Shown here piece after piece: positions 1 to 64,000 of a stretch of 64,000 bases of DNA. The notes under the pieces were generated by a model. That model searched no databases and was not told the origin of the DNA. It saw nothing but the letters and a program-made list of their open reading frames with translations. The position numbers and the translations under genes were made by a program. Every line of letters begins with the position of its first letter. The first letter of the stretch is position 1. The stretch comes from Bacteroidales bacterium (lineage in GTDB: Bacteria > Bacteroidota > Bacteroidia > Bacteroidales > WCHB1-69), in the NCBI GenBank assembly GCA_017540505.1, contig JAFYAW010000018.1, positions 21,286 through 85,285 of the forward strand, given 5' to 3'.

Positions 1-93
1 TCCGCGCAGCATGTTCATCCGCAGGGAACGGTAGCTTGGTGTGCTTTTCCGATAAAAATGATTTCAGGATGGTTTTTATTTTGAAAAAAAGTG

Positions 94-101
94 TATTTTT
101 G
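94..101 (+). promoter_or_regulatory. Bacteroidetes-type -7 box (TATTTTTG) for tRNA-Ser
   Basis: Matches TAnnTTTG 25 nt upstream of the tRNA 5' end. It sits in a ~30-nt context nearly identical to the tRNA-Met promoter at 62344. Confidence 0.6.
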
Positions 102-125
102 CCGCCGATTTCAAAAACGAAACCC

Positions 126-4152: not shown

Positions 4153-6648
4153 TTAGAATTCAATGGAGAATTTGACATTTATCAGTCTTCCGGTCAGATA
4201 GTTGGGTACGGCGAACTGTGAGCCGCTGATGTCGGTGACCCAGAAATGGGAGGATATGTTGGAGGTGCCCAGCAGGTTGAAGACTTCAATATAGACGCCG
4301 GCGTTTTTGATGCTGCGCACGAACTTGGACTTGTTGCGCATACGGTCGCGGCTCTGTTCGAGGAACATGAACGAGCAGCCAAGGTCCACGCGGCGGAACC
4401 ATGTGTCGCGTAGCACGCGCATGTAGGCAGGGGCGTTAGGTGCGCCGTAGGGGAGGCCCGAGGCGAAGACGAAGTTCAGATGCACGCGGAACTGCGGGTA
4501 TCCGGGGATGTGGTCCTGGAAGAAGAGGTTTAAGGCTACGCGCTGGTCGGTGGGGCGCGGGATGTAGCCTGGCTCGACGCGATTGCCGTCTTGGTCGATG
4601 TAGTAGTCGCCGATGATGTCCTCCGCCGTCTTCATCAGCGATACGGAGAACCAGGATTCGAGGCCGCGCACAAACTCGCCGCTGATTTTCAGATCCAGTC
4701 CCGCGGCATAGCCTTTGGCGTCATTCTCCCCGCTGTAGATGATACGCACGTTGTCCACTGTGTAGGAGATGAGGTGGTCCATGTACTTGTAGTAGGCCTC
4801 GGCGGTGAACTTGAAGGGTCGCCGCCAGATCAGGAAGTTGTATTCCGTGCCGGCCACCACATGGACAGAGCGTTGCGACTTGATGTCGCGGTTGAGGCTC
4901 CCGTCGGGGCGGCGCATCTCGCGGTAGAAGGCCGGCTGGTAGTAGAGGCCGGTCTTGACGATGAACCGCCAGTCATGCTTCCAGTGCGGGTCGTAGGTGA
5001 AGGCGAGGCGCGGCGAGGCCGTGAACTCCTTCTTGTTGAGGGTCCAGTAATGGAAGCGCACGCCGGCATTGAGGATGTAGTGTGGTAGGGTGTCGTCGTC
5101 AATCTTCCAGACATCCTGCACGAAGCCGGTGAAACGGACGGTGTTGAGCAGGTTGTCGCATTTGAGGTAGTCGTGTTCGCCGAAGGCGAGAATGCGCGAC
5201 GGGTCGTCAAGAGGGACTGTCACGCCAGGCGTGTTATGCGTCATCGGCAGCGTGTAGCCGGAGGAGTCGCGCATGGTCCACTCCTTGATATGGTCGTTGA
5301 TGTATTCGTTCTGCGCCTTCACCCCCCAACTCAGCAGGTTGGAGTGGGGCAGCTTGTGCTCGCCAAGGATGTTGGCCGCCGACACCACCGAGGTGATGGC
5401 GTTGCGGGCATGCTCCAGATAGGTGCCGTAGGCCCGGATGGAGACCTCCTGCGCTATCTCACCATCTTCGTTGCCAAGGTCCGCTTCGATGTCGCTCAGG
5501 AAATACTGGCTTTGGATGTCGTAGCGTTCACTCTCCTTGGCAAAATAGGAGGAGAGGATGAGCCTCAGATGGGTCTTGTCGTCGGGACGGTAGTGGAAGG
5601 TGAGGCCGCCGAGGTAGTTCTCGTAGCGGTCCAGCTCCTGTCCGTCGTAATAGACGGTCACGCGCTTCATGTTCTCGATGGAGCCCCAGGTGGTGGTCCG
5701 GTCTTCCGGCTGGTAAAGGTAGCTGTTGATGGAGAAATTACCCAACAGGCTGATGCTGAATTTCTTGCTGATGTCCCAATTGAGGAGCATCTGCGTGTCG
5801 AAGAATCGGGGTTTGAAGTCGCCATGGGTCTCCAGCGATTTCAGCAGGTAGGCGTTGGAGTGGAAGCGCAGGCCCACCAGGAAGGAGAAGGTGCTGTCCA
5901 CCTTGCCTTCCGCGTGTGCGGTGGCCCCTAACATGCTGGCGGACACGGACCCGCCGTATTGCGTGGGCGTCTTGTACTGCACGTCCAGCACCGACGACAT
6001 CTTGTCGCCGTATTTGGCCTCGAAGCCGCCGGCGGAGAAAATGACGTTGCCGGTGAGGTCGGGGTTTATGAAGCTCATGCCCTCCTGCTGGGCACTCCGC
6101 ACTAAGAAGGGACGGTATATCTGGATGTCGTTGACAAAGATGAGGTTCTCGTCGTAGTTGCCGCCGCGCACGTTGTACTGGGTGCTCAATTCGTTGGTGG
6201 AGGAGATACCCGGCATCATCTTGATCAGCGACTCCATGCCGCCACCCGGGGTGGGCATCTGGAAGGAGAGTTTCGGGTTGACCTGAATGTATCCCGCTTC
6301 CGATTTTCCTCGTATGTTGACCTGCTGCAGCCGGTTGCCGACAGTCTGCAGGGTGATGCTCAGGTTGCGCGTCTCCTTCGATTTCAGACGAAGTGCAATG
6401 ACCGTGTCTCTGTGGCTGATGTGCTGGATGAGGATGTTCAGGTCGGTGTTCTCCGGCACGGCGAGTGTGAAACGCCCGTAGTCGTCCGTGATGGTCTGCA
6501 GGTTGTGGTCCAGCACGTGCACAACGGCATTCTCAACAGCCTGACCTTCCGTATCATACAAAACACCCTTGATGGTGGCCCTTTGGGCATGGGAGATGCC
6601 GAAGGTCAGAATCAGCAGACATAATATCAGAAAGGAGCGTGTGTTCAA
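4153..6648 (-). CDS. TonB-dependent receptor (CarboxypepD_reg N-domain + plug + barrel)
   Basis: Signal peptide; IKGVLYDTEGQAVENAVV carboxypeptidase-regulatory-like domain; plug motifs (NVRGG, ENLIFVNDIQIY); C-terminal F. Confidence 0.85.
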   Translation of the reverse strand: MNTRSFLILCLLILTFGISHAQRATIKGVLYDTEGQAVENAVVHVLDHNLQTITDDYGRFTLAVPENTDLNILIQHISHRDTVIALRLKSKETRNLSITLQTVGNRLQQVNIRGKSEAGYIQVNPKLSFQMPTPGGGMESLIKMMPGISSTNELSTQYNVRGGNYDENLIFVNDIQIYRPFLVRSAQQEGMSFINPDLTGNVIFSAGGFEAKYGDKMSSVLDVQYKTPTQYGGSVSASMLGATAHAEGKVDSTFSFLVGLRFHSNAYLLKSLETHGDFKPRFFDTQMLLNWDISKKFSISLLGNFSINSYLYQPEDRTTTWGSIENMKRVTVYYDGQELDRYENYLGGLTFHYRPDDKTHLRLILSSYFAKESERYDIQSQYFLSDIEADLGNEDGEIAQEVSIRAYGTYLEHARNAITSVVSAANILGEHKLPHSNLLSWGVKAQNEYINDHIKEWTMRDSSGYTLPMTHNTPGVTVPLDDPSRILAFGEHDYLKCDNLLNTVRFTGFVQDVWKIDDDTLPHYILNAGVRFHYWTLNKKEFTASPRLAFTYDPHWKHDWRFIVKTGLYYQPAFYREMRRPDGSLNRDIKSQRSVHVVAGTEYNFLIWRRPFKFTAEAYYKYMDHLISYTVDNVRIIYSGENDAKGYAAGLDLKISGEFVRGLESWFSVSLMKTAEDIIGDYYIDQDGNRVEPGYIPRPTDQRVALNLFFQDHIPGYPQFRVHLNFVFASGLPYGAPNAPAYMRVLRDTWFRRVDLGCSFMFLEQSRDRMRNKSKFVRSIKNAGVYIEVFNLLGTSNISSHFWVTDISGSQFAVPNYLTGRLINVKFSIEF

Positions 6649-10607: not shown

Positions 10608-10704
10608 TAAAAATAATTTAAAATACCATTTTATTTGATGAAAAATTTATATAAAATAGTCAAATTTAACAATTAATAGTTAAAAATTCGATTTTTTGTT
10701 GGAA

Positions 10705-10900
10705 GATTAGAGATTGGAGTTTAGAGTTGAGGGAGAAACGTTAAAGTGTTATGGGTCAACAGCTATATCAGGCCATTAAAAAACTAAGAAATTAAGAAGT
10801 TAAGAAACCAAAAACCAATGCTAACAGCCAAAAGCTAATGGCATGTCGTAATCGAAAACCGCAAACCGCAAATCGTAAATCGCAGACTCCAAGCCTACAT
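10705..10900 (-). repeat. Heptanucleotide-phased drifting tandem array (about 28 units), inverted relative to the other arrays
   Basis: Reads in one 7-nt phase: GATTAGA GATTGGA GTTTAGA GTTGAGG ... AACTAAG AAATTAA GAAGTTA AGAAACC AAAAACC AATGCTA ACAGCCA AAAGCTA ... TCGAAAA CCGCAAA CCGCAAA TCGTAAA TCGCAGA. The reverse complement gives the TCTAATC/TCTAAAC/CCTCAAC units seen at 14256 and 53277. Confidence 0.8.
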
Positions 10901-14172: not shown

Positions 14173-14178
14173 TTGTCC

Positions 14179-14290
14179 ATTGGGATTTGGGTATTGTGGA
14201 ATTAGGCTTTGGCCATTAGCCGTTAGCTATTGGCTTTTAGCTTTTAACTTTTAACTCTAAACTCTAATCTCTCAACTCTAAACTATTAAA
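14179..14290 (+). repeat. Heptanucleotide-phased drifting tandem array (16 units) filling the glnS-downstream spacer
   Basis: ATTGGGA TTTGGGT ATTGTGG AATTAGG CTTTGGC CATTAGC CGTTAGC TATTGGC TTTTAGC TTTTAAC TTTTAAC TCTAAAC TCTAATC TCTCAAC TCTAAAC TATTAAA. Confidence 0.85.
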
Positions 14291-14295
14291 CAGAC

Positions 14296-14715
14296 ATGCA
14301 CTGCCTCACCGATTACGACACCAAGGTGCTGCTCGCCTTCAATCTGAGCTTGCAGGGCGACCGGAAATTCAGTGATTTCCTGATGCAGAACGGGTATCCG
14401 GAGTTGGAGGCGTTGTCGTCGTCCATCCATTCGAACATTGCGGCCCAGCAGTGGCTGTTGGACAATGGGTATCCGGAGTTCGCCGTGTTGAGCAATGCCA
14501 TCGACGACGAGCCGGAGGCTATTGACTGGTTGGAGAAGTACCATTGCGACTTCCTATCCAGGTTTGCGGCGGCGTGCCGGAAGGACCCGGCGGCCATGAA
14601 GTGGTTCGCGGCCAACGACTTGAAACTCTTCGTTATCATCATCAGCAATATCCAGAACATCCTGATGTACCAGTCGTGGGATGCCTCCGACATCCACAAG
14701 TTCCGGCGGAGTTGA
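14296..14715 (+). CDS. Hypothetical protein with internal NGYPE(L/F) repeats
   Basis: 139-aa ORF with a repeated ...(F/W)L(M/L)(Q/D)NGYPE(L/F)... motif. No signal peptide. Family not recognised. Confidence 0.5.
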   Translation: MHCLTDYDTKVLLAFNLSLQGDRKFSDFLMQNGYPELEALSSSIHSNIAAQQWLLDNGYPEFAVLSNAIDDEPEAIDWLEKYHCDFLSRFAAACRKDPAAMKWFAANDLKLFVIIISNIQNILMYQSWDASDIHKFRRS

Positions 14716-24918: not shown

Positions 24919-25253
24919 GTTTTAAAACAATCGTATTTATGCACCCTAAAAACTCGAAACGTGCAACCCCATACGGGGTTGTGGGTTCGGCTGGGAATGC
25001 CCTCGGCTACAGATAGGGAACCCCTAGCGGGGTTCAGCGGAATTCGGAAACAAAACAAGATTCCGGCATCAACCGATACACCGCAGACACCCGCATTGGG
25101 CTTAAATGCAATACTGTGCCGGAGGAGGCGGTGGTGAGGTAAAGTGAGGTGAGGTATGACGAGGTAAGGTAAGACGACTGTCTGTAGCAAACGGATGCCA
25201 CACGTGGTTTTCAAATCTCCGTAGGAGATTCATATTCAACGGCTAATGGACGG
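24919..25253 (+). repeat. Copy A of a ~335-bp palindrome-rich repeat element (3' arm partly degenerate)
   Basis: The 123-nt core 24953-25075 differs at only 2 positions from 26220-26342. Hairpins at 24964-24981, 25018-25035 and 25215-25229. CTACAGATAGG box at 25007-25017. Confidence 0.85.
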
Positions 25254-25388: not shown

Positions 25389-25793
25389 CTATAAGAGTTG
25401 TACCGCGGCCAGTTCTCTTCCAATCTTGTGAATCGCGGTCTGAATCTTTGACACTTGCTTTTCCGACACATACTGGCCGTGCTTGTATTGGCGCATCAAA
25501 GAGGGGTTGATGCCGGCATATTTTGCAAATTGTGTCATATTCAGTATTTTGTAATAGCTCAAGAAAGAAGGCATATCATATTTATATACGAATGTCGTGT
25601 TTTTCAAATCGTCGGGATCGGGTTTTCCCGTTTCCTCAAACACTTCTATAAATTCCCTAACTGAATTTTCAAAATCGGCTTTAGCCTCGGCGACAGTGCT
25701 GCCGTTTCCAAACATAACGGATTTTGTGTCAGGAGAGAACACACCGAATGTTCCGTCTTTGCCAATTTCTATTAATGCGACTTTCTTTTTCAT
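25389..25793 (-). CDS. hicB: HicB-family antitoxin with C-terminal HTH
   Basis: N-terminus (KVALIEIGKDGTFGVFSPD...GSTVAEAKADFENSVREFIE) is HicB-like. C-terminal XRE-like HTH (MTQFAKYAGINPSLMRQYKHG). An alternative start lies at 25829. Confidence 0.75.
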   Translation of the reverse strand: MKKKVALIEIGKDGTFGVFSPDTKSVMFGNGSTVAEAKADFENSVREFIEVFEETGKPDPDDLKNTTFVYKYDMPSFLSYYKILNMTQFAKYAGINPSLMRQYKHGQYVSEKQVSKIQTAIHKIGRELAAVQLL

Positions 25794-25818
25794 AATTCTA
25801 TGCTTTTGTTGATTTCTA

Positions 25819-26001
25819 TTAAAAACCAATCAATTTCTTCAACTTGCAATACAATCCGTACTTTATTTCCTGCGAACCATGACGTTCAATTTTCAAAAGT
25901 TCATTCTTTTCTGCGTGGGCATATATGTCATGATTAGCACCATTTCGCAAAAGATACCATCCTTTAGATTCGGCTATCCGTCTGAGTTCGCTCCATTTCA
26001 T
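25819..26001 (-). CDS. hicA: HicA-family mRNA interferase toxin
   Basis: MKWSELRRIAESKGWYLLRNGANHDIY...ERHGSQEI fits the HicA/YcfA pattern. The internal start is supported by the -7 box at 26026-26033, which lies inside the longer ORF. Confidence 0.75.
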   Translation of the reverse strand: MKWSELRRIAESKGWYLLRNGANHDIYAHAEKNELLKIERHGSQEIKYGLYCKLKKLIGF

Positions 26002-26025
26002 ACTCCACTGCTTTTGACCATGCTG

Positions 26026-26033: not shown

Positions 26034-26187
26034 TAACTTTTTTGCAATATACCAATACTCTTTAAAAAAATTATTTCTCCCTATCCATCAATTATTTACA
26101 TACTTTCTATAAATATAATTGCTGAAACTGTGCTGCAATATCAAAAGTTTTTTCCAAGACTATTGTATTTATAGAGTTTGCCATTTA

Positions 26188-26530
26188 GTTTTAAAACAAT
26201 CGCATTTACACAATAAAAACTCGAAACGTGCAACCCCATACGGGGTTGTGGGTCCGGCTGGGAATGCCCTCGGCTACAGATAGGGAACCCCTAACGGGGT
26301 TCAGCGGAATTCGGAAACAAAACAAGATTCCGGCATCAACCGCCACGCCGCATACACCCGCATCGGACTGATATGCAATACCGCGCCAGAGGAGGCGGTG
26401 GTGAGGTAAAGTGAGGTGAGACGAGACGTGGTACAACATCCCCGTAGGGGATGCCTATCTGTAGCAAACGTATTCCACACGTGGTTTTCAAATCTCCGTA
26501 GGAGATTCATATTCAACGGTTCATGGACGG
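26188..26530 (+). repeat. Copy B of the ~340-bp palindrome-rich repeat element (most complete copy)
   Basis: Hairpins at 26231-26248, 26285-26302, 26437-26453 and 26492-26506. GCTACAGATAGG (26273-26284) is a perfect complement of CCTATCTGTAGC (26454-26465). Confidence 0.85.
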
Positions 26531-52420: not shown

Positions 52421-53134
52421 ATGGGTACAACAGGAATGATATGGGATGATGCGTCGCCGGTGACGTTGGAAAAGCCGGCGGCGGTGGAGATTGTGCATCA
52501 TGGTGTGTCCGTGGCCCTCATTGCGGATGATATGCCTCTTGGCGATTTCGCGTGGATTACGCCGAACGCGGTCCGCACGTTAGTGGAGAATCATGTCAAA
52601 GTCTATATGCAGCGCGGCTTTGCGGAACATTCGCCCTACTCGGATATGGATTATGCCGATGTGGGGGCGGAGTTCGAGGACGAGTTTGTGCGGTTGGCGG
52701 CAATGTCGCCCCTGTTAGTGAAGTTCATGCCGTTCACGGAGGAGCAGATCGGGCAGATGCGCGAGGGGCAGATCATCCTCTCCACGCAGCAGGCCGCGCA
52801 GATGAGCCTCCCGCAGGTGGAAATGCTTCTCCGCAAGAAAATCTCCGCGTTGGCCATGAATCTGATACGCGATGCGCAGGGCCTCTCCGTCACCGACAGA
52901 ATACTTTCGGAGACCATCACCCCGGTAGGGTTAGGCATCGCATTGTCCAATTTTGTGCTTCCGATGATTTTGAACATCCTGTTCAGTCCGCGCTTCCGCT
53001 TCGCCCTGCAGCGCACGCCAGCCCTGATGCAGAGCGTCTATTGCTACGACGGGCACCTGTGCAACGCGGAAATGGCCGAACTGCTCGGCCTGCCATGGAA
53101 GGACATCGTAACGCTTTGCTGGGATTTGAATTAG
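52421..53134 (+). CDS. Hypothetical protein (weak resemblance to an alanine dehydrogenase/PNT N-terminal domain)
   Basis: 237-aa ORF directly after tsaE. The N-terminal half is weakly AlaDH/PNT-N-like and the C-terminal half is hydrophobic. The call is tentative. Confidence 0.45.
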   Translation: MGTTGMIWDDASPVTLEKPAAVEIVHHGVSVALIADDMPLGDFAWITPNAVRTLVENHVKVYMQRGFAEHSPYSDMDYADVGAEFEDEFVRLAAMSPLLVKFMPFTEEQIGQMREGQIILSTQQAAQMSLPQVEMLLRKKISALAMNLIRDAQGLSVTDRILSETITPVGLGIALSNFVLPMILNILFSPRFRFALQRTPALMQSVYCYDGHLCNAEMAELLGLPWKDIVTLCWDLN

Positions 53135-53136
53135 AA

Positions 53137-53318
53137 TTGGCTGTTGGCCGTTAGCTGTTGGCTATTGGGATTTGGGATTTATGTTAATGCCTGAATAAGG
53201 TTGACCGTTGGTCACTATTCACTGATCACTATTCACTGATCACTGATCACTGGTCTTAGTTCCTTAACTCCTCTCAACTCTAATCTCTAAACTCTCAACT
53301 CTAATCTCTCACCTCTTA
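53137..53318 (+). repeat. Heptanucleotide-phased drifting tandem array (about 26 units) filling a convergent intergenic spacer
   Basis: TTGGCTG TTGGCCG TTAGCTG TTGGCTA TTGGGAT TTGGGAT TTATGTT ... GTTGACC GTTGGTC ACTATTC ACTGATC ACTATTC ACTGATC ACTGATC ACTGGTC TTAGTTC CTTAACT CCTCTCA ACTCTAA TCTCTAA ACTCTCA ACTCTAA TCTCTCA CCTCTTA, all in one phase. Confidence 0.85.
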
Positions 53319-54844
53319 ATCGGCAGATAGATGACGAATGTGCTGCCCTTGCCCTCCTCGCTCTGCACCTGGATTTTGCCTTTGTGCAAGGAGACGATTT
53401 TCTTCACATAGCCAAGTCCGAGGCCGTAGCCCTTCACGTTGTGCACGTTGCCTTTGGGCACGCGGTAGAAGTTGTCGAAAATGTTGGCGATGGCCTTCTT
53501 GGGGATGCCGATACCCTTGTCGGTGACCGAGAGCAGGAAATACTTCTCGTCCGACTGCGTGTTGATAAGGATCTCGGGTGCCCCTTGCGAGTATTTGATG
53601 CCGTTTTCCACCAAATTGACAATCACATTGGCCAAATGGGAGCGGTCGCCGAAGATCTTGTAGGTGTCGGCGTTCAGGGCCAAGGAGAGCGTCCCGTTGG
53701 TGGATGAGATCTGCAGGGCGATGTTGTCCGAAACCTTGTGGATGAGCTCGTGCATGTCCAAAAGCTCGATGTTCATCTTCACCTGTCCTTTTTTCAGTTG
53801 AGCAATCTGTAAGATGTTGTTGACCATGTTTTTGAGACGGTCGTTTTCGTCACGGATGATGGAGACATAGCTCTCTAAGATGTCGGCGTCGTTGCGCATG
53901 ACGGGGTCGGTGAGTGCCTCGCAGGCTAACGAGATGGTGGAGATCGGGGTTTTGAACTCGTGGGTCATGTTATTGACGAACTCGTTGGTGACCTCCGACA
54001 GTTTTTTCTGGCGGTACAGGGAGAACAGGGCGGTGAAGGAGATGGTGAAGCAGATGATCAGGAAGATGAGGATGAGGCCCACGATGGTGCTCATACGCTG
54101 GAGGAAGATGCCGCGTTCGGCGGGGAAGTGGAGGATGATGTAGTGCGGCGCGCTCACTTTCTCGTTGAATTTCAGACGGAAGACGTAGTCGCTCTTGAGC
54201 ATCTGCTCGGGCTGGGTGAATTCCGGCTCAACGACGAAGTCGGTGGTGAAGGCGTTGTAAAGGGCGAAGTCGAAGCGTGCGGTGATGTTCTCGGCGGCCA
54301 AGGCATTCTCGATGACCTCGTGAAGGAATTCGGCGTTCAGCAGGGCCACGGTCTGGCTGTCGAGCTGGATGAGGTTGGCATCGCGGGTGTTGTTGATCAG
54401 CAGGGTAGTAGATTTGGTGTTCTTGGGTGACCACGGATCGTTGTTGACGGGGAAGAGCTGCCGGTAGGACTCGCTGAAATACTCGGTGTCGCACTCCATA
54501 AGCCGGGAGTTGTTCTCCTTGACGAAGATGACCGCCTTGATGACGCCGATGGGCTGTTGCGTTACGGTGTCGAGCAGGAATTTGCGGGTGTGCATGGTGG
54601 AGACCACATCCGTGGTGTCGGCGGCGGTGAGCTTCCCTACGGCTTCCGCCATGGCCACTGTGTCGTTGAGGATGGTGGCGTCAATCTGGTTGACGATGGC
54701 ATCGCCGGCCGTCAGCACCTCGTTGACGAAAATGCTCCGCTGCACCTTCTCCGCTTCCGTGTAAAGCTTGAAAATGGACAGGATCAGCGGGATGGAGGTG
54801 ATGCCGACAATGAAGAACAAGGCTACGATGATACGTTTTTTCAT
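53309..54844 (-). CDS. Sensor histidine kinase
   Basis: Two TM segments; H-box (NMTHEFKTPISTI); N, G1 and G2 boxes (NLVENGIKY, DKGIGIP, GYGLGL). Confidence 0.88.
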   Translation of the reverse strand: MKKRIIVALFFIVGITSIPLILSIFKLYTEAEKVQRSIFVNEVLTAGDAIVNQIDATILNDTVAMAEAVGKLTAADTTDVVSTMHTRKFLLDTVTQQPIGVIKAVIFVKENNSRLMECDTEYFSESYRQLFPVNNDPWSPKNTKSTTLLINNTRDANLIQLDSQTVALLNAEFLHEVIENALAAENITARFDFALYNAFTTDFVVEPEFTQPEQMLKSDYVFRLKFNEKVSAPHYIILHFPAERGIFLQRMSTIVGLILIFLIICFTISFTALFSLYRQKKLSEVTNEFVNNMTHEFKTPISTISLACEALTDPVMRNDADILESYVSIIRDENDRLKNMVNNILQIAQLKKGQVKMNIELLDMHELIHKVSDNIALQISSTNGTLSLALNADTYKIFGDRSHLANVIVNLVENGIKYSQGAPEILINTQSDEKYFLLSVTDKGIGIPKKAIANIFDNFYRVPKGNVHNVKGYGLGLGYVKKIVSLHKGKIQVQSEEGKGSTFVIYLPIKR

Positions 54845-60421: not shown

Positions 60422-62308
60422 ATGATTATGAGATACAATAATAATATAAGACGAATGGCCGTGGTGGCCGCATTATGTTGCTGTGCTCTCGGAATGAGCG
60501 CCCAGGTGGTGGATTCCGCGCATCTGCTGATACAGTATGTCCCCAAACTGATCAACTCCAACAAAATCAACCGTTCTGCCGTCATCGTGGACACCGTACA
60601 GGAGGAGGTGAAATACACCTATTCGATCAGTCCGCAGAAGCCGGAGGTCACATTCAACGCTGCTGAAATGAAGGTGACCAAGCTGAATCCCGAAATCAGC
60701 GAGCTCTACTACCGGAATTACATTAAGTTGGGCTTCGGTTACCCGATCACGCCGTTAGCGGAGCTGTCGATGCACAACTGCCGCAACCGCAAATATTCCT
60801 ACGGCTTGAATTTCCATCATTTCTCCTCGTGGGCGGAGCCGATAGGCAAAATCCAGAAGCAGTATGCCTACGCGCCCACCAGCGACACTCGCGTACATCT
60901 TTTCATGAACCGCTTTTTCAAAAATTACACCCTGTACACCTCGTTAGGCTACAACCATGAGATGGCTAACCTGTATGGGTACAACAAGAGTTGGGGTATC
61001 GATCCTGTTTATTATGAAAAAGATTATCGTGACAGTATTCACAATAATTTCCACCATCTGAAAGCCGAATTGGGCATCCGTTCCAATTATACGACCGAAG
61101 ACAAGCGTGTGAAAGAGGATGTGCGCTTGAATTACGATTTTATCCATACCTATTGGAAAGATATGGAGCACACGGTGGGTCTGAAATCCTTCATTGCGTA
61201 TGATGAACGTTTTCTGAAGATTTCCGGTTACCAGCATTATCAGTTGGATTTCAATGTGGAGTATTATAACAACCATTGGAATGATTCCATTTATAATGCG
61301 GGTACCCAGCATAATGTGGCAAGTCCCAATGTTGACAACAGCTTCAAAATTGAGTTCCGTCCGCACATGAACTTCACGATCAAGGAGTACCACATCTTGT
61401 TGGGTGTGGGTGTGCCGGTGCTGATGGCCAACGAGCAGCTGAGGTGCCCAGTCTATCCCATCGCCGAGTTGCAGTTGGGTTTGGTGCGTGGGTTGCTCAG
61501 CATCTATGCCGGTGTGGACGGCCGTTCCGAATACAACTCGTTGAAGAACATCCTCTATGAGAATCCCTACGTGAAACCGCAGCTCGACAGTCTCCGTTTC
61601 AACCGGACGCAGGTCAGCATCTACGGAGGTGTGAAGGGTAATCTCTTCAAGAAATTCAACTACCACATTTCCGCACGTTACTCTTACAGCAAGGATATGC
61701 CCTTTTATGTGCTGGATACCAACAGTATGCTGAAAAACCAGTTCGACATTGTGTATGCCGAGAAGGTAGGGCACCTGAACGTGTGCGCCAACCTGAGCTG
61801 GGAGGCCATCGATCATCTCTATTTGAATCTGAACGCCAATTATTGGGGCTACTATTTCAGTCGCAAATCGCAGCATCCGGAGCACGCCTGGTACAAGCCC
61901 ACGTGGGAGATCGGCTTCGAGGGCAAGTATGTGCTGAAACAGAAGTTCATCTTCGACGTTAACGCCAAAGTGGGCTTCGACCGTTGGGCTCTGATGCCGG
62001 TCACGGGCGTGGATGAGGCGGGCAACACCGTCATCACCGGCTATCGCACGGTCAATGACATCCGCAAGGATTATGACATGCGCGATGCCGATGGCAAGAA
62101 GGTCTTCAAGCCGATACTCAATTTCGGTGTGGGATTCGAATACATCATCACCAAGCATTTTGCCGCCTTCGCACAGGTCAACAACATCGGGTGCCAGTAT
62201 GCGTCCGAATATTTGAATTTCAACAATTTTGGGGTGAATGCATTGGTGGGTGTGACCTATTCTTTCGGCAATGAGCCGTTGAAGCCTGCCAAGAAAAAGA
62301 AACAGTAG
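60422..62308 (+). CDS. Putative porin / outer-membrane beta-barrel protein
   Basis: Signal peptide (AVVAALCCCALGMSAQ); beta-strand periodicity; GVTYSFG near the C-terminus; paired with the TPR gene. Confidence 0.55.
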   Translation: MIMRYNNNIRRMAVVAALCCCALGMSAQVVDSAHLLIQYVPKLINSNKINRSAVIVDTVQEEVKYTYSISPQKPEVTFNAAEMKVTKLNPEISELYYRNYIKLGFGYPITPLAELSMHNCRNRKYSYGLNFHHFSSWAEPIGKIQKQYAYAPTSDTRVHLFMNRFFKNYTLYTSLGYNHEMANLYGYNKSWGIDPVYYEKDYRDSIHNNFHHLKAELGIRSNYTTEDKRVKEDVRLNYDFIHTYWKDMEHTVGLKSFIAYDERFLKISGYQHYQLDFNVEYYNNHWNDSIYNAGTQHNVASPNVDNSFKIEFRPHMNFTIKEYHILLGVGVPVLMANEQLRCPVYPIAELQLGLVRGLLSIYAGVDGRSEYNSLKNILYENPYVKPQLDSLRFNRTQVSIYGGVKGNLFKKFNYHISARYSYSKDMPFYVLDTNSMLKNQFDIVYAEKVGHLNVCANLSWEAIDHLYLNLNANYWGYYFSRKSQHPEHAWYKPTWEIGFEGKYVLKQKFIFDVNAKVGFDRWALMPVTGVDEAGNTVITGYRTVNDIRKDYDMRDADGKKVFKPILNFGVGFEYIITKHFAAFAQVNNIGCQYASEYLNFNNFGVNALVGVTYSFGNEPLKPAKKKKQ

Positions 62309-62343
62309 GCGATGGCCTGTTGCGGCAGTGTCAAAAAAAAATG

Positions 62344-62351
62344 TATTTTTG
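62344..62351 (+). promoter_or_regulatory. -7 box TATTTTTG for tRNA-Met
   Basis: TAnnTTTG 30 nt upstream of the tRNA. The extended context AAAAAAA(A/G)TGTATTTTTGCCGCC..TTTCAA is shared with the tRNA-Ser promoter. Confidence 0.6.
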
Positions 62352-62380
62352 CCGCCACTTTCAAGACTACACGATAGTCG

Positions 62381-62454
62381 GGTCCCTTAGCGCAGTTGGT
62401 TAGAGCAACTGACTCATAATCAGTAGGTCCTTGGTTCGAGCCCAAGAGGGACCA
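62381..62454 (+). tRNA. tRNA with CAT anticodon (Met elongator, or Ile2 if lysidinylated)
   Basis: Acceptor GGTCCCT/AGGGACC. D-arm GCGC-AGTTGGTTA-GAGC. Anticodon stem ACTGA/TCAGT with loop CTCATAA. T-arm CTTGG-TTCGAGC-CCAAG. Discriminator A. Confidence 0.9.
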
Positions 62455-62466
62455 CATAAGACAGGC

Positions 62467-62501
62467 AAGCACTTGCAATATGATTTTGCAGGTGCTTTTT
62501 T
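62467..62501 (+). terminator. Intrinsic terminator after tRNA-Met
   Basis: 12-bp stem AAGCACTTGCAA/TTGCAGGTGCTT (one G-U pair) running into T6. Confidence 0.75.
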
Positions 62502-62540
62502 ATTGTGGCGCTGGGAAAGGTGAAATTTCCACCAATTGTC

Positions 62541-62638
62541 GTTTGGGAATTGGAATTTGCGGTTTCGGTTCCCGATTCTATGTTCTCAGTTCTTAGGTCT
62601 CCGTTCTATGTTCTTTGTTCTTCGTTCTTTATCCCCCA
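62541..62638 (+). repeat. Heptanucleotide-phased drifting tandem array (14 units)
   Basis: GTTTGGG AATTGGA ATTTGCG GTTTCGG TTCCCGA TTCTATG TTCTCAG TTCTTAG GTCTCCG TTCTATG TTCTTTG TTCTTCG TTCTTTA TCCCCCA. Confidence 0.8.
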
Positions 62639-62674
62639 AAACGCCGTAGGCGTTTCATATCTGTAGAAATAGGG
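62639..62674 (+). repeat. Solitary copy of the element's 3'-arm module (GTA-loop hairpin + CATATCTGTAG box)
   Basis: AAACGCC-GTA-GGCGTTT followed by CATATCTGTAGAAATAGGG. Compare CATCCCC-GTA-GGGGATG + CCTATCTGTAG at 26437-26464. Confidence 0.7.
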
Positions 62675-62749
62675 CCGACGCACACACCATCGCGGCGTGG
62701 CAGGCGCGTGCCACAGAGAACGGGATGGAACCGCCGCGAAACGACGACA

Positions 62750-62790
62750 CGCTGAAAAGAGGTATCTTATCCGAATACGAAGGATAGATA
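62750..62790 (-). terminator. Candidate terminator of the island-2 operon
   Basis: Stem TATCTTATCC/GGATAGATA (1-nt bulge) abutting the stop codon at 62791-62793. It is followed on the minus strand by CCTCTTTTC. Confidence 0.45.
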
Positions 62791-63324
62791 TCATTTTTCT
62801 CCAACATAAAACAAATCCTTAATGGATTCGGTAGTAACTACTCGAAATTTCAGCATCCTAGATCCAATAAAAACATTTTTTCCGTTCACTGAGAATTCAA
62901 ATGTCCTGTCTAAATAGTTACTCCTCCATAGAATATCATTGTCTCCCACCGACCTTAATCGTAAATCATACCAAGTTCCTATTTGAAGAGGGGTGCTGCA
63001 ATCAAGAGTGTCTTCAAAAAAGGTTACTATAGTGAACATGAATTGTCCGGTTTTGTCCGCGACATGTATTAAATTGAATTTCTTGAAATCTTCTTTAAAA
63101 TTCCAGGGATTTGTATCTATTGCAACTACTATATAACTACAGAGGACAGAGTCATACACGGCTTCTTCAAAAATGACTGTGTCAGGAATATAATCTCTTA
63201 TCCAGTATACTTTTTCTGTATTCAGGTAACAGGTGTCAGACGTTTGCGCGGAACAGGGCCGTACACACACAAACAGCAATGTCAAAACGAGTAACGCCAA
63301 ATATTTCAACAGAGTTTTTTTCAT
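62791..63324 (-). CDS. Hypothetical secreted protein (177 aa), AT-rich island 2
   Basis: Signal peptide MKKTLLKYLALLVLTLLFVCVRPCSAQ. 4-nt ATGA overlap with the upstream gene. No family recognised. Confidence 0.55.
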   Translation of the reverse strand: MKKTLLKYLALLVLTLLFVCVRPCSAQTSDTCYLNTEKVYWIRDYIPDTVIFEEAVYDSVLCSYIVVAIDTNPWNFKEDFKKFNLIHVADKTGQFMFTIVTFFEDTLDCSTPLQIGTWYDLRLRSVGDNDILWRSNYLDRTFEFSVNGKNVFIGSRMLKFRVVTTESIKDLFYVGEK

Positions 63325-64000
63325 CGTATTAATATCCCAGGGCTTTCATTTTGATTGTTTTTTCTGGGGAAAAATCGTATCAAACAAACATAGTTTGGCG
63401 TGTTGTAAAAAGTATAAACACCTTCCTCATTGGTAGGTATTCTTAAGATGTAAATACCGCACTCATCCATCTCAACATCCAACGGCAATAGATAACAACG
63501 ATGCCCAAACTGATACAATCTAGCCACATGTATATCTTGTGGGAACGTGTAAATCATAGTTAAAATAGAATCTTTCCCGATTTTTTCACCGCTGCATGTA
63601 GTTAAGCATTCTCCATGCAAAGAGTTTGCCGTCACCTCTTTACCTAAAAAAGTTCTACTGTCAGAATAACATCTGACACCTATTTCTATTGTGGAGTCGC
63701 CAATCTCATTCATGAACACATGCTGGCTCTGGCCTGTTTCACGACACCAATCCCAAAGCGTTAATGCAAACGATGCACGATATGCATTTCTTTGGTTTTC
63801 ATAACCTTGGATACAGGCGATTGTATGCTGATTTATTTCAGCCATTTCTTCTTGACAAAGCAACGCATCACTCACTTTGATGAAGCTGTTTGTGTCCTCA
63901 TCAAATAAAGATGGTCCTTTTATCCGGTATTTTTGAGCATCCATTCGCGACAAATCTCTTTCATTCTGGCCAAATAGAGGAAAATACCCAACCCCAAAAA
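63321..64000 (-). CDS. Hypothetical protein, possibly 5'-truncated by the window edge
   Basis: The first Met in the track is at 63953, but the frame stays open to position 64000 (..FGVGYFPLFGQNERDLSRMDAQ..). Cys-rich and AT-rich. No family recognised. Confidence 0.5.
   Translation of the reverse strand, partial: FGVGYFPLFGQNERDLSRMDAQKYRIKGPSLFDEDTNSFIKVSDALLCQEEMAEINQHTIACIQGYENQRNAYRASFALTLWDWCRETGQSQHVFMNEIGDSTIEIGVRCYSDSRTFLGKEVTANSLHGECLTTCSGEKIGKDSILTMIYTFPQDIHVARLYQFGHRCYLLPLDVEMDECGIYILRIPTNEEGVYTFYNTPNYVCLIRFFPRKNNQNESPGILIR

Follow-up and report, generated by a model that had tools for sequence, protein, structure and literature searches.

A heptanucleotide repeat that runs without a spacer into a short hairpin and a conserved box was found downstream of a tRNA-Met gene in 64,000 nucleotides of DNA of an uncultured Bacteroidales bacterium of ruminant guts (contig JAFYAW010000018.1, 52% G+C; this whole stretch is called the window below, and the loci compared with it are designated L and a number). 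In our interpretation, for which we would put the probability at about 0.68, a module resembling repetitive extragenic palindromic (REP) sequences and a heptanucleotide repeat have been joined into a composite of ~230 bp, and this composite marks the borders of variable cassettes.

The array consists of four G/T-rich units (62541-62568) followed by ten pyrimidine-rich units of the TTCTNNG type (62569-62638). Identity of the sequence with itself is 0.63 at a lag of 7 nt, 0.58 at lags of both 14 and 21, and ~0.25-0.37 at other lags; the value at lag 7 corresponds to z = 6.9 relative to 2000 dinucleotide-preserving shuffles, the highest of which reached 0.48, and Tandem Repeats Finder (TRF) reports periods of 7 and 21 at 62576-62630. 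An earlier note on this DNA had quoted fourteen in-phase units, which indeed match 62541-62638 exactly and end where the hairpin AAACGCC-GTA-GGCGTTT begins (62639-62655, with CATATCTGTAG following at 62656-62666); no spacer separates position 62638 from 62639. The note was also right in placing the array downstream of tRNA-Met (62381-62455), the intrinsic terminator of this gene lying in between, and the array-hairpin stretch faces the 3' end of a convergent open reading frame (ORF) of 177 aa. The fourteen units comprise 11 different sequences and are homogeneous only in their TTCTNNG core; near-identical units, as in the strict definition of long simple-sequence repeats (LSSRs), are not found in the array at 62541-62638.

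When the window was scanned for all periods from 2 to 15, period 7 gave six segments, period 14 four, and any other period no more than one. The period-7 segments group into four loci, all of them intergenic (10.7-10.9, 14.18-14.30, 53.13-53.33 and 62.54-62.64 kb) and three of them situated between convergent genes; hairpin and box abut only the last one. Similar proportions were obtained for 607 kb of loci from many phyla (50 segments of period 7 against at most 9 for other non-multiple periods) and for 362 kb of metagenome loci (15 against at most 5), so that period 7 is the sole enriched period in the DNA examined. Between fixed anchors, six copies of the array measure 55, 55, 55, 48, 76 and 69 nt, lengths that each leave a remainder of 6 on division by 7; the differences consist of whole TTCTNTG units in the homogeneous middle, while the junction with the hairpin is invariant. 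A second family, built of AATTCTW units, also varies in length by whole units. The array is a degenerate member of the known class of heptanucleotide simple-sequence repeats: its 7-nt units are arranged head to tail, its length varies by whole units, and several intergenic arrays are present per genome (four loci in 64 kb). Heptamers in intergenic DNA have been described for Cyanobacteria, Beggiatoaceae and some Bacteroidetes (PMC4679880); according to Mrazek (2007), as cited there, heptanucleotides are the commonest long simple-sequence repeat in most prokaryotes, and polymerase slippage was proposed as their source. The heptads TCACTGA and TCACTAT (window 53212-53252) are one base off the TAACTGA of Beggiatoaceae, Cyanobacteria and five Bacteroidetes.

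Units drift by single-base steps along an array, and changes in composition have a polarity. A switch from G-rich to C-rich along the strand was seen in 11 of the 76 period-7 arrays in all DNA examined and the reverse switch in none of the 76; among the 20 arrays of at least 90 nt, 14 were more G-rich on the left and 0 on the right. Such a polarity reads the same on both strands and is hence independent of orientation; the relation of the G-rich strand to gene ends is weak (31 vs 18 and 17 vs 11).

Judged by its sequence, the hairpin with CATATCTGTAG is a REP-like module, belonging to a family of GC-rich hairpins with a 3' RTAG box. The usual unit of this family is a double hairpin composed of the first hairpin (H1), the box, ~25 nt, the second hairpin (H2) and CATA, and it occurs singly, in tandem or as inverted doublets. 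The tag stands 7 nt 3' of the stem (GGCGTTT-CATATCT-GTAG), and a second GTAG spans loop and stem. An exact-pattern scan (CCGTAGG-N5-CMTATCTGTAG) of 185,579 species genomes, one genome per species, gave 83 loci in at least six phyla, where our own estimate of the chance expectation is ~35; the loci belong to Bacteroidales, Chitinophagales, Cytophagales, Ignavibacteria, Kapaibacteriota, Verrucomicrobiota (including Akkermansia) and Acidobacteria. Several copies were present in some metagenome-assembled genomes (MAGs), with up to 8 matches in one, and ~74 of 98 modules were intergenic according to crude ORF calls. A covariance model (R1) was built solely from metagenomic modules that flank genes for Y1 transposases; its alignment is a subset with 3-nt loops (A5) selected for pairing, which makes its pair counts circular, and these were not used as evidence. 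In the window R1 finds two full and four partial copies. The top match is 62639-62670 (37.5 bits, E = 1.8e-6), followed by 26437-26468 (30.6 bits), by the H2-type hairpins of a 335-bp element described below (19.3 bits) and by a further match of 11.3 bits in copy 2 of that element. A hairpin identical to H1 of the window adjoins a Y1 gene in L088. H1 was rejected as an intrinsic terminator, its stem being followed by CATATCTGTAG and not directly by a U run; the terminator scan passed over H1 and selected, besides the tRNA terminator, a G.U hairpin at 62543-62575. A full-text search of the literature for the box sequence gave unrelated primers only, and no description of the module was found in the literature searched for work on REPs and REP-associated tyrosine transposases (RAYTs) in Bacteroides.

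A candidate partner enzyme is seen in other genomes. In the Akkermansia locus L020, a double-hairpin unit lies directly 5' of a 155-aa ORF encoding a Y1 transposase, and an inverted hairpin lies 3' of the gene. The protein matches Pfam PF01797 (E = 7.7e-26) and the NCBIfam model IS200 (72.5 bits, cut-off 55); with the RAYT model NF047646 (REP_Tyr_transpos) it scores 32.9 bits, below the cut-off of 80. A PF01797 transposase adjoins the module in 10 of the 83 loci, namely in L020 and with nine homologues of 48-80% identity, from four phyla. These single-domain proteins (~153 aa) share the motifs DH[ILV]H, WQ and YIENQxxHH; the module-associated enzyme thereby has the signature that Quentin et al. 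(2018) give for subclass 1.2, which they described as low-copy, present in Cyanobacteria and Bacteroidetes, and devoid of associated REPs or typical terminal hairpins (PMC6006769). In the reverse test, 80 metagenome loci (L084-L163, with the Y1 gene on the plus strand) were fetched through the protein alone and searched with a strict finder of hairpin plus box, which gives ~4 matches per 128 kb of shuffled sequence. A module was present within 200 nt upstream of the gene in 40 of 75 cases, 35 of them on the gene's strand only, and within 200 nt downstream in 45 of 72, 35 of them on the opposite strand only. The family thus has a fixed geometry around the Y1 gene, which stands between a module and an inverted module with the box turned towards it; the layout is that of a RAYT between inverted REPs and not that of IS200.

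Array, module and a GC-rich tail have, as comparison of sequences indicates, been copied as one composite in this genus. In the genes that they have in common with the window, two sister species are 93% and 90.6% identical to it in DNA, and in them the same order (G/T-rich heptads, TTCTNNG heptads, ATCCCCCAAAACGCC-GTA-GGCGTT-CATATCTGTAG, tail) recurs behind four different left flanks: at the tRNA-Met locus (L063, L068), before orphan RHS-tip genes (L026, L049, left end of L022), in L019, and in L072 and the right end of L022. The paralogues resemble the window from 62543-62600 onwards and as far as 62711-62774. No part is repeated more often than the tail: in four gut metagenomes, contig depth at 62678-62719 exceeds that of the flanks by a factor of 5-20; the window sequence is present in sheep, goat and other gut metagenomes. 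In a second, unrelated Bacteroidales lineage (Go_SlDig_bin_369, STF1_159) one to four AATTCTW heptads lead into that lineage's own hairpin and box, a pairing shown by seven copies of the module, distributed over five loci and embedded in a larger conserved repeat; in L013 heptads of the TTTTCGA type take the same position 5' of the hairpin.

A two-gene cassette whose ORFs have no Pfam match is delimited on its downstream side by the composite of the window, in inverted orientation (border F'). In L164, from the same species, modules at 2961-2992 and 4655-4686 bracket the cassette in opposite orientation, and the upstream border there is made of a module at 2908-2940 followed by an ACGCC-type H1 and box with the same GC-rich tail at 2961-2992; L164 2908-4686 corresponds to 62639 to ~64420 in window coordinates. 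The stretch 63338-63999 of the window is 93% identical in DNA to an ORF in an array of orphan RHS-tip cassettes in L022, the gene concerned being the minus-strand ORF 63321-63953, and this L022 array is itself bracketed by inverted composites. Distant relatives, with 68-74% identity in the 626-aa protein encoded upstream, keep that gene, tRNA-Met and its terminator, and other genes follow directly; no array or module was found after the terminator in these relatives. Array, module and cassette are therefore additions to this locus in this genus, and the position of the modules at cassette borders suggests a role in cassette turnover. An IS200/IS605 element as such was rejected for the window locus: no Y1 gene lies inside, and the inverted modules bracket two unrelated genes. 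The coordinates of the features are collected in Table 1.

Table 1. Features of the window (strand. where none is assigned)
Feature	Position	Strand	Evidence	Remarks
Composite dispersed repeat (array, H1-box, GC-rich tail), ~230 bp	62541..62774	+	similarity to paralogues with different flanks	
Heptad array, 14 in-phase units	62541..62638	+	lag-7 identity, TRF	
REP-like module H1-box	62639..62670	+	covariance model R1	7-bp stem, GTA loop, then CATATCTGTAG(AAAT)
GC-rich tail (CGCGGCG...GTGGCA-GGCGCG-TGCCAC...CGCCGCG)	62667..62774	+	BLAST to L019, L022 (two copies), L026, L049, L063, L072	
AT-rich two-gene cassette	62791..63953	-	ORFs, L164-L169 gene calls	177-aa ORF and ORF of at least 210 aa running to window end (~270 aa)
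tRNA-Met (CAT)	62381..62455	+	ARAGORN; Rfam tRNA 65.6 bits	ancestral neighbour of composite
Intrinsic terminator of tRNA-Met	62467..62507	+	terminator scan	12-bp stem (62467-62497), then T run TTTTTATT
Heptad arrays without module	53128..53327	.	period scan, TRF, Pfam	between convergent genes
Heptad array without module	14179..14299	.	period scan, TRF, Pfam	between convergent GlnRS gene and 331-aa ORF
Heptad and one octad arrays without module	10699..10899	.	period scan, TRF	between divergent genes
Arrays switching from G-rich to C-rich	14178-14301, 53127-53328			also L037 3094, L042 4506, L062 2395, L022 6227, L049 4697
335-bp element, copy 1	24919..25253	+		layout of copy 2 without H1 hairpin before CTGTAG; H2 25215-25236; inverted module 25003-25035
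335-bp element, copy 2	26183..26530	+		inverted module pair (26270-26302, minus), ~140 nt with period-5 purine tract, H1-box 26437-26468, H2 26492-26513

The link between the two repeat kinds is far from general. A search for period 7 upstream of the modules, as proposed in the earlier note, revealed a weak, lineage-bound association. Among modules found by their DNA motif, 14 of 94 reached an identity at lag 7 of 0.5 or more over the 56 nt upstream, compared with 0.5% of random windows; other periods reached this level upstream in at most 2%, and lag 7 did so downstream in 1 of 94. After collapsing paralogues, period 7 remained in 5 of 39 clusters upstream and in 1 of 39 downstream (Wilcoxon P = 0.05 against other lags, 0.15 against the downstream side). 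Modules ascertained through the protein (194 in 49 clusters) showed no excess at lag 7, about one cluster reaching the threshold. According to R1 the module is absent at three of the four heptad loci of the window, and no heptads abut the modules at the opposite cassette border (L164 2908-2940 and 2961-2992, outside the window). For the ACGCC-type hairpin, heptads were found in 5 of 6 contexts. The pairing is frequent for one hairpin type in one genus, occurs in a few other lineages and is absent from most of the family; it is a lineage-specific composite of two known repeat kinds, neither of which needs the other. The earlier proposal of one composite architecture holds inasmuch as the juxtaposition recurs in this lineage and in the second Bacteroidales lineage, but it cannot be generalised to arrays such as the three in the window that have no module.

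The same proposal extended to the two copies of the 335-bp element, which are direct repeats of 91% identity by alignment and in which a heptad stretch had been thought to precede the hairpin. The purine tract in question (25131-25180 and 26398-26425) has an identity at lag 7 of 0.30-0.33, equal to the shuffle mean (P = 0.6); at lag 5 the identity is 0.55-0.70 (P <= 0.001), at lag 15 it is 0.6-0.7, and TRF finds periods of 5 and 15. The tract is not made of heptads, and only copy 2 has the hairpin behind it: there CATCCCC-GTA-GGGGATG (26438-26454) precedes CCTATCTGTAG, and in copy 1 GACGACTGTCTGTAG stands without a hairpin. What is left of the juxtaposition is a short-period simple-sequence tract 5' of the hairpin of copy 2. 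With its inverted module pair, ~140 nt and forward module pair, the element has a REPIN-like layout. Elements homologous to it adjoin Y1 transposase genes in L015, L037 and L052. In the window the copies flank two small minus-strand ORFs (25389-25829 and ~25830-26010), which by eye look like a hicA/hicB toxin-antitoxin pair.

In the mechanism that we propose for the composite, by analogy to REP/RAYT systems and IS200/IS605 elements, an enzyme would recognise the folded hairpin in single-stranded DNA and cut near the RTAG box, by which modules would be spread or maintained. The heptad array gains and loses whole units, most simply by replication slippage. Either the modules would carry the composite along as they spread, or cassette borders would recombine with one another; at the window locus it forms the downstream border of a two-gene cassette inserted beside tRNA-Met. 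Several points weigh against this interpretation. No Y1 gene was found in the window by tblastn, and no Y1 gene with flanking hairpins of the ACGCC type could be assigned to the species, the nearest match being in another rumen Bacteroidales MAG (L074) and in L088. That a subclass 1.2 enzyme acts on such modules we infer by analogy, and the published survey of the subclass lists no REPs (PMC6006769). The copying of the composite could reflect ordinary recombination between cassette borders and not transposition. Contigs from three gut metatranscriptomes cover the stretch from 62597 or 62599 to ends between 62776 and 62838 at 100% identity, although these contigs are unstranded, of low depth and possibly derived from DNA, end where repeated 31-mers begin, and therefore speak of presence only; none of 62456-62596 is covered by them. 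Finally, arrays running into the 5' foot of the hairpin in three independent lineages exceed what co-residence in spacers predicts, and a mechanistic link is possible.

The metatranscriptome contigs would fit an element acting at the RNA level, in which the hairpin blocks 3' exonucleases or pauses RNA polymerase and the pyrimidine heptads serve for Rho loading or as an array for a single-strand binder. REPs stabilise mRNA 3' ends in E. coli, the locus lies between convergent transcription units, the pyrimidine heptads are predicted to be unpaired, and modules share the orientation of the upstream gene about twice as often as they oppose it (35 vs 16; crude ORF calls). On the other hand, folding energies of the arrays and of the composite on both strands equal those of shuffles, except for z = -2.9 at 53195-53325 on the plus strand, which lends no support to a structured RNA; Rfam gives only tRNAs at the gathering threshold in the window and 14 related loci, and nothing credible at E <= 10 in 62300-62900; and tRNA-Met already has its own intrinsic terminator. 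Modules in both orientations and inverted pairs around genes fit a DNA-level element, and we do not consider the RNA-level explanation a likely one. A separate candidate, pairing of the G-rich half of an array with the C-rich half to form a bidirectional terminator, was unsupported by the folds.

Mechanistic coupling would mean that heptads are made at the 5' foot of the hairpin, through nicking and rejoining by the Y1 enzyme or through polymerase stalling, or that the array is a preferred landing site of the module. The arrays of the TTCTTTG, AATTCTW and L013 TTTTCGA types indeed end 0-3 nt from the 5' foot of H1 in lineages that are independent of one another; the upstream bias of period 7 (5 clusters of 39, against 1 downstream) and the frequent presence of heptads at ACGCC-type hairpins point the same way, and other short-period tracts occur 5' of H1 as well, of period 5 in the 335-bp element and of period 8 in L004 and L053. 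The published ranges of subclass 1.2 and of heptamer repeats both include Cyanobacteria and Bacteroidetes. Nevertheless, no excess at lag 7 exists 5' of the 194 protein-ascertained modules, and most arrays have no module, be it at three of the four window loci or for most of the 65 segments in other loci. Units are gained and lost in the middle of the array, with the junction unchanged, and heptanucleotide repeats are, according to work cited in PMC4679880, common in Burkholderia and Xanthomonas, genera not known for the enzyme. Coupling therefore seems improbable to us.

Chance adjacency of two unrelated spacer residents, with no composite at all, has in its favour that both repeat kinds are confined to intergenic DNA, that the general association is weak and that the copy at the far cassette border has no array; it is largely refuted, and very improbable, given that the ordered array, module and tail recur with different flanks at several sister-species loci and that the second lineage repeats the pattern in its seven module copies at five loci. 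Iterated double-stranded binding sites for a repressor or partition protein, like those of omega of plasmid pSM19035, would agree with a period of 7 and its overtone at 21, about two helical turns, and with the reading (T/G)ATCACT of the array at 53212-53252, which we take to be close to the omega heptad WATCACW, but this is hardly credible when units drift along an array and are not the same from one array to the next, a variation incompatible with a sequence-specific binder, and when Pfam gives no candidate protein nearby.

Some further features of these loci deserve mention. In L164 a promoter of the Bacteroidetes type (TGTATTTTTGCC) follows the upstream module. Orphan RHS-tip ORFs (..FSAKEKDAETGLSYFGARYY..) and presumed immunity genes lie between the inverted composites of L022 (2592-5293), and RHS-tip ORFs likewise stand downstream of the composites in L026 and L049. 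Beside the GC-rich tail in L019, L063 and the right end of L022, a conserved 44-aa ORF (MAKSSTRRVIIYINGKKAEVFIKQIRSKMNKFVNEQNRKVIR) is directed towards the composite; the frame of the L063 copy is broken behind a poly-C run. L168, from another strain of the same species, was rejected as an instance of the cassette in a new context, its breakpoint inside the 3' end of tRNA-Met beside a resolvase gene representing a separate integration: foreign DNA with the resolvase (serine recombinase) gene, at ~2010-2760, joins inside the tRNA, as expected for an integrative element using tRNA-Met as its attachment site, and this event has no bearing on whether the composite is mobile. A 31-nt stretch, AAAAAAA(G/A)TGTATTTTTGCCGCC..TTTCAA, is found upstream of both tRNA genes (window 84-114 and 62334-62364) and includes the Bacteroidetes -7 promoter motif. 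After tRNA-Ser there are two direct repeats of 62 nt with 95% identity (260-321 and 373-434), each containing CTAC and GACTGC-TC-GCAGTC, that is, on the minus strand, a hairpin with GTAG directly at its foot; these may be a second REP-like type.

By itself, the heptad array belongs to an ordinary and already described kind of simple repeat. What the module adds is that a Y1 clade published without associated repeats sits between inverted hairpin-box modules which are dispersed in the genomes of several phyla, so that the REP/RAYT idea of a domesticated transposase with miniature hairpins is extended to another branch of enzymes, to gut Bacteroidales and to Akkermansia. Here the inverted modules bracket cargo genes and not a transposase, and they also border arrays of cassettes of the RHS toxin-immunity type. 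For annotation, the composite accounts for a recurrent repeat of ~230 bp that breaks metagenome assemblies at cassette borders. A bolder proposal, which as a whole strikes us as quite unlikely, is that subclass 1.2 Y1 enzymes are the missing partner of a REP-like system of Bacteroidota, Chlorobi-Ignavibacteria and Verrucomicrobiota; they would move hairpin modules and entire units bracketed by inverted modules, including cassettes of the toxin-immunity type, and in some lineages heptads would be started or lengthened by their nicking of the hairpin at its 5' foot. If this were true, the heptamer repeats of Cyanobacteria and Bacteroidetes, long unexplained, would be tied to a specific enzyme.

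Among known systems, the arrays come closest to the LSSR/STRR repeats and the TAACTGA repeats (MacGregor 2015, PMC4679880; Mrazek 2007), with which they share intergenic tandem heptamers, the mixing of unit types within a spacer, occurrence in Bacteroidetes and length variation by whole units. Unlike in those repeats, the units are degenerate here (~63% lag identity), the sequence drifts stepwise along the array, and one array type in this genus is fused to a REP-like module and copied with it.

The module shares with REPs or REPINs and their RAYTs, and with GTAG palindromes (Nunvar 2010; Bertels & Rainey 2011; Di Nocera 2013, PMC3733652), a short GC-rich hairpin, a (G/A)TAG tag, dispersal in many intergenic copies that stand singly, in tandem or as inverted doublets and, in relatives, the 'REPtron' layout of a low-copy Y1 HUH gene between inverted copies; GTAG repeats were reported in Proteobacteria, Cyanobacteria, Chloroflexi and the Planctomycetes-Verrucomicrobia-Chlamydiae (PVC) group, not in Bacteroidetes (Di Nocera 2013, PMC3733652). 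It differs in that the GT[AG]G tag stands 3' of the stem and not at the 5' foot of the hairpin, and in that its basic unit comprises two hairpins (H1, box, ~25 nt, H2); the enzyme carries YIENQxxHH in place of the Y---NP of RAYTs (class 2) and fails the cut-off of the RAYT clade. Since the tag lies 3' of the stem and the enzyme falls outside the RAYT clade, the module is REP-like and not part of a REP/RAYT system proper.

With TnpA-Y1 of subclass 1.2 (PMC6006769) the enzyme has in common its size of ~150 aa, the motifs DH[ILV]H, WQ and Y-x3-Q-x2-HH, low copy number and occurrence in Bacteroidetes. In contrast to the published subclass, 53-62% of the genes chosen through the protein have a module with a strict hairpin within 200 nt on each side, in fixed polarity, and further copies of these modules are scattered over other parts of the genomes; the family extends here also to loci of Verrucomicrobiota, Ignavibacteria and Chitinophagales. 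IS200/IS605 elements share the Y1 HUH transposase (PF01797) and hairpins near the ends, and at the right end of IS608 a short conserved sequence lies ~10 nt 3' of the hairpin. However, their ends are hairpins of the same orientation with no inverted repeats, and the flanks described here are inverted; moreover, the modules greatly outnumber the Y1 gene and occur without it. It is because of this inversion and this excess of modules over the gene that the system falls outside the definition of IS200/IS605, with a layout closer to that of a RAYT gene and its REPs.

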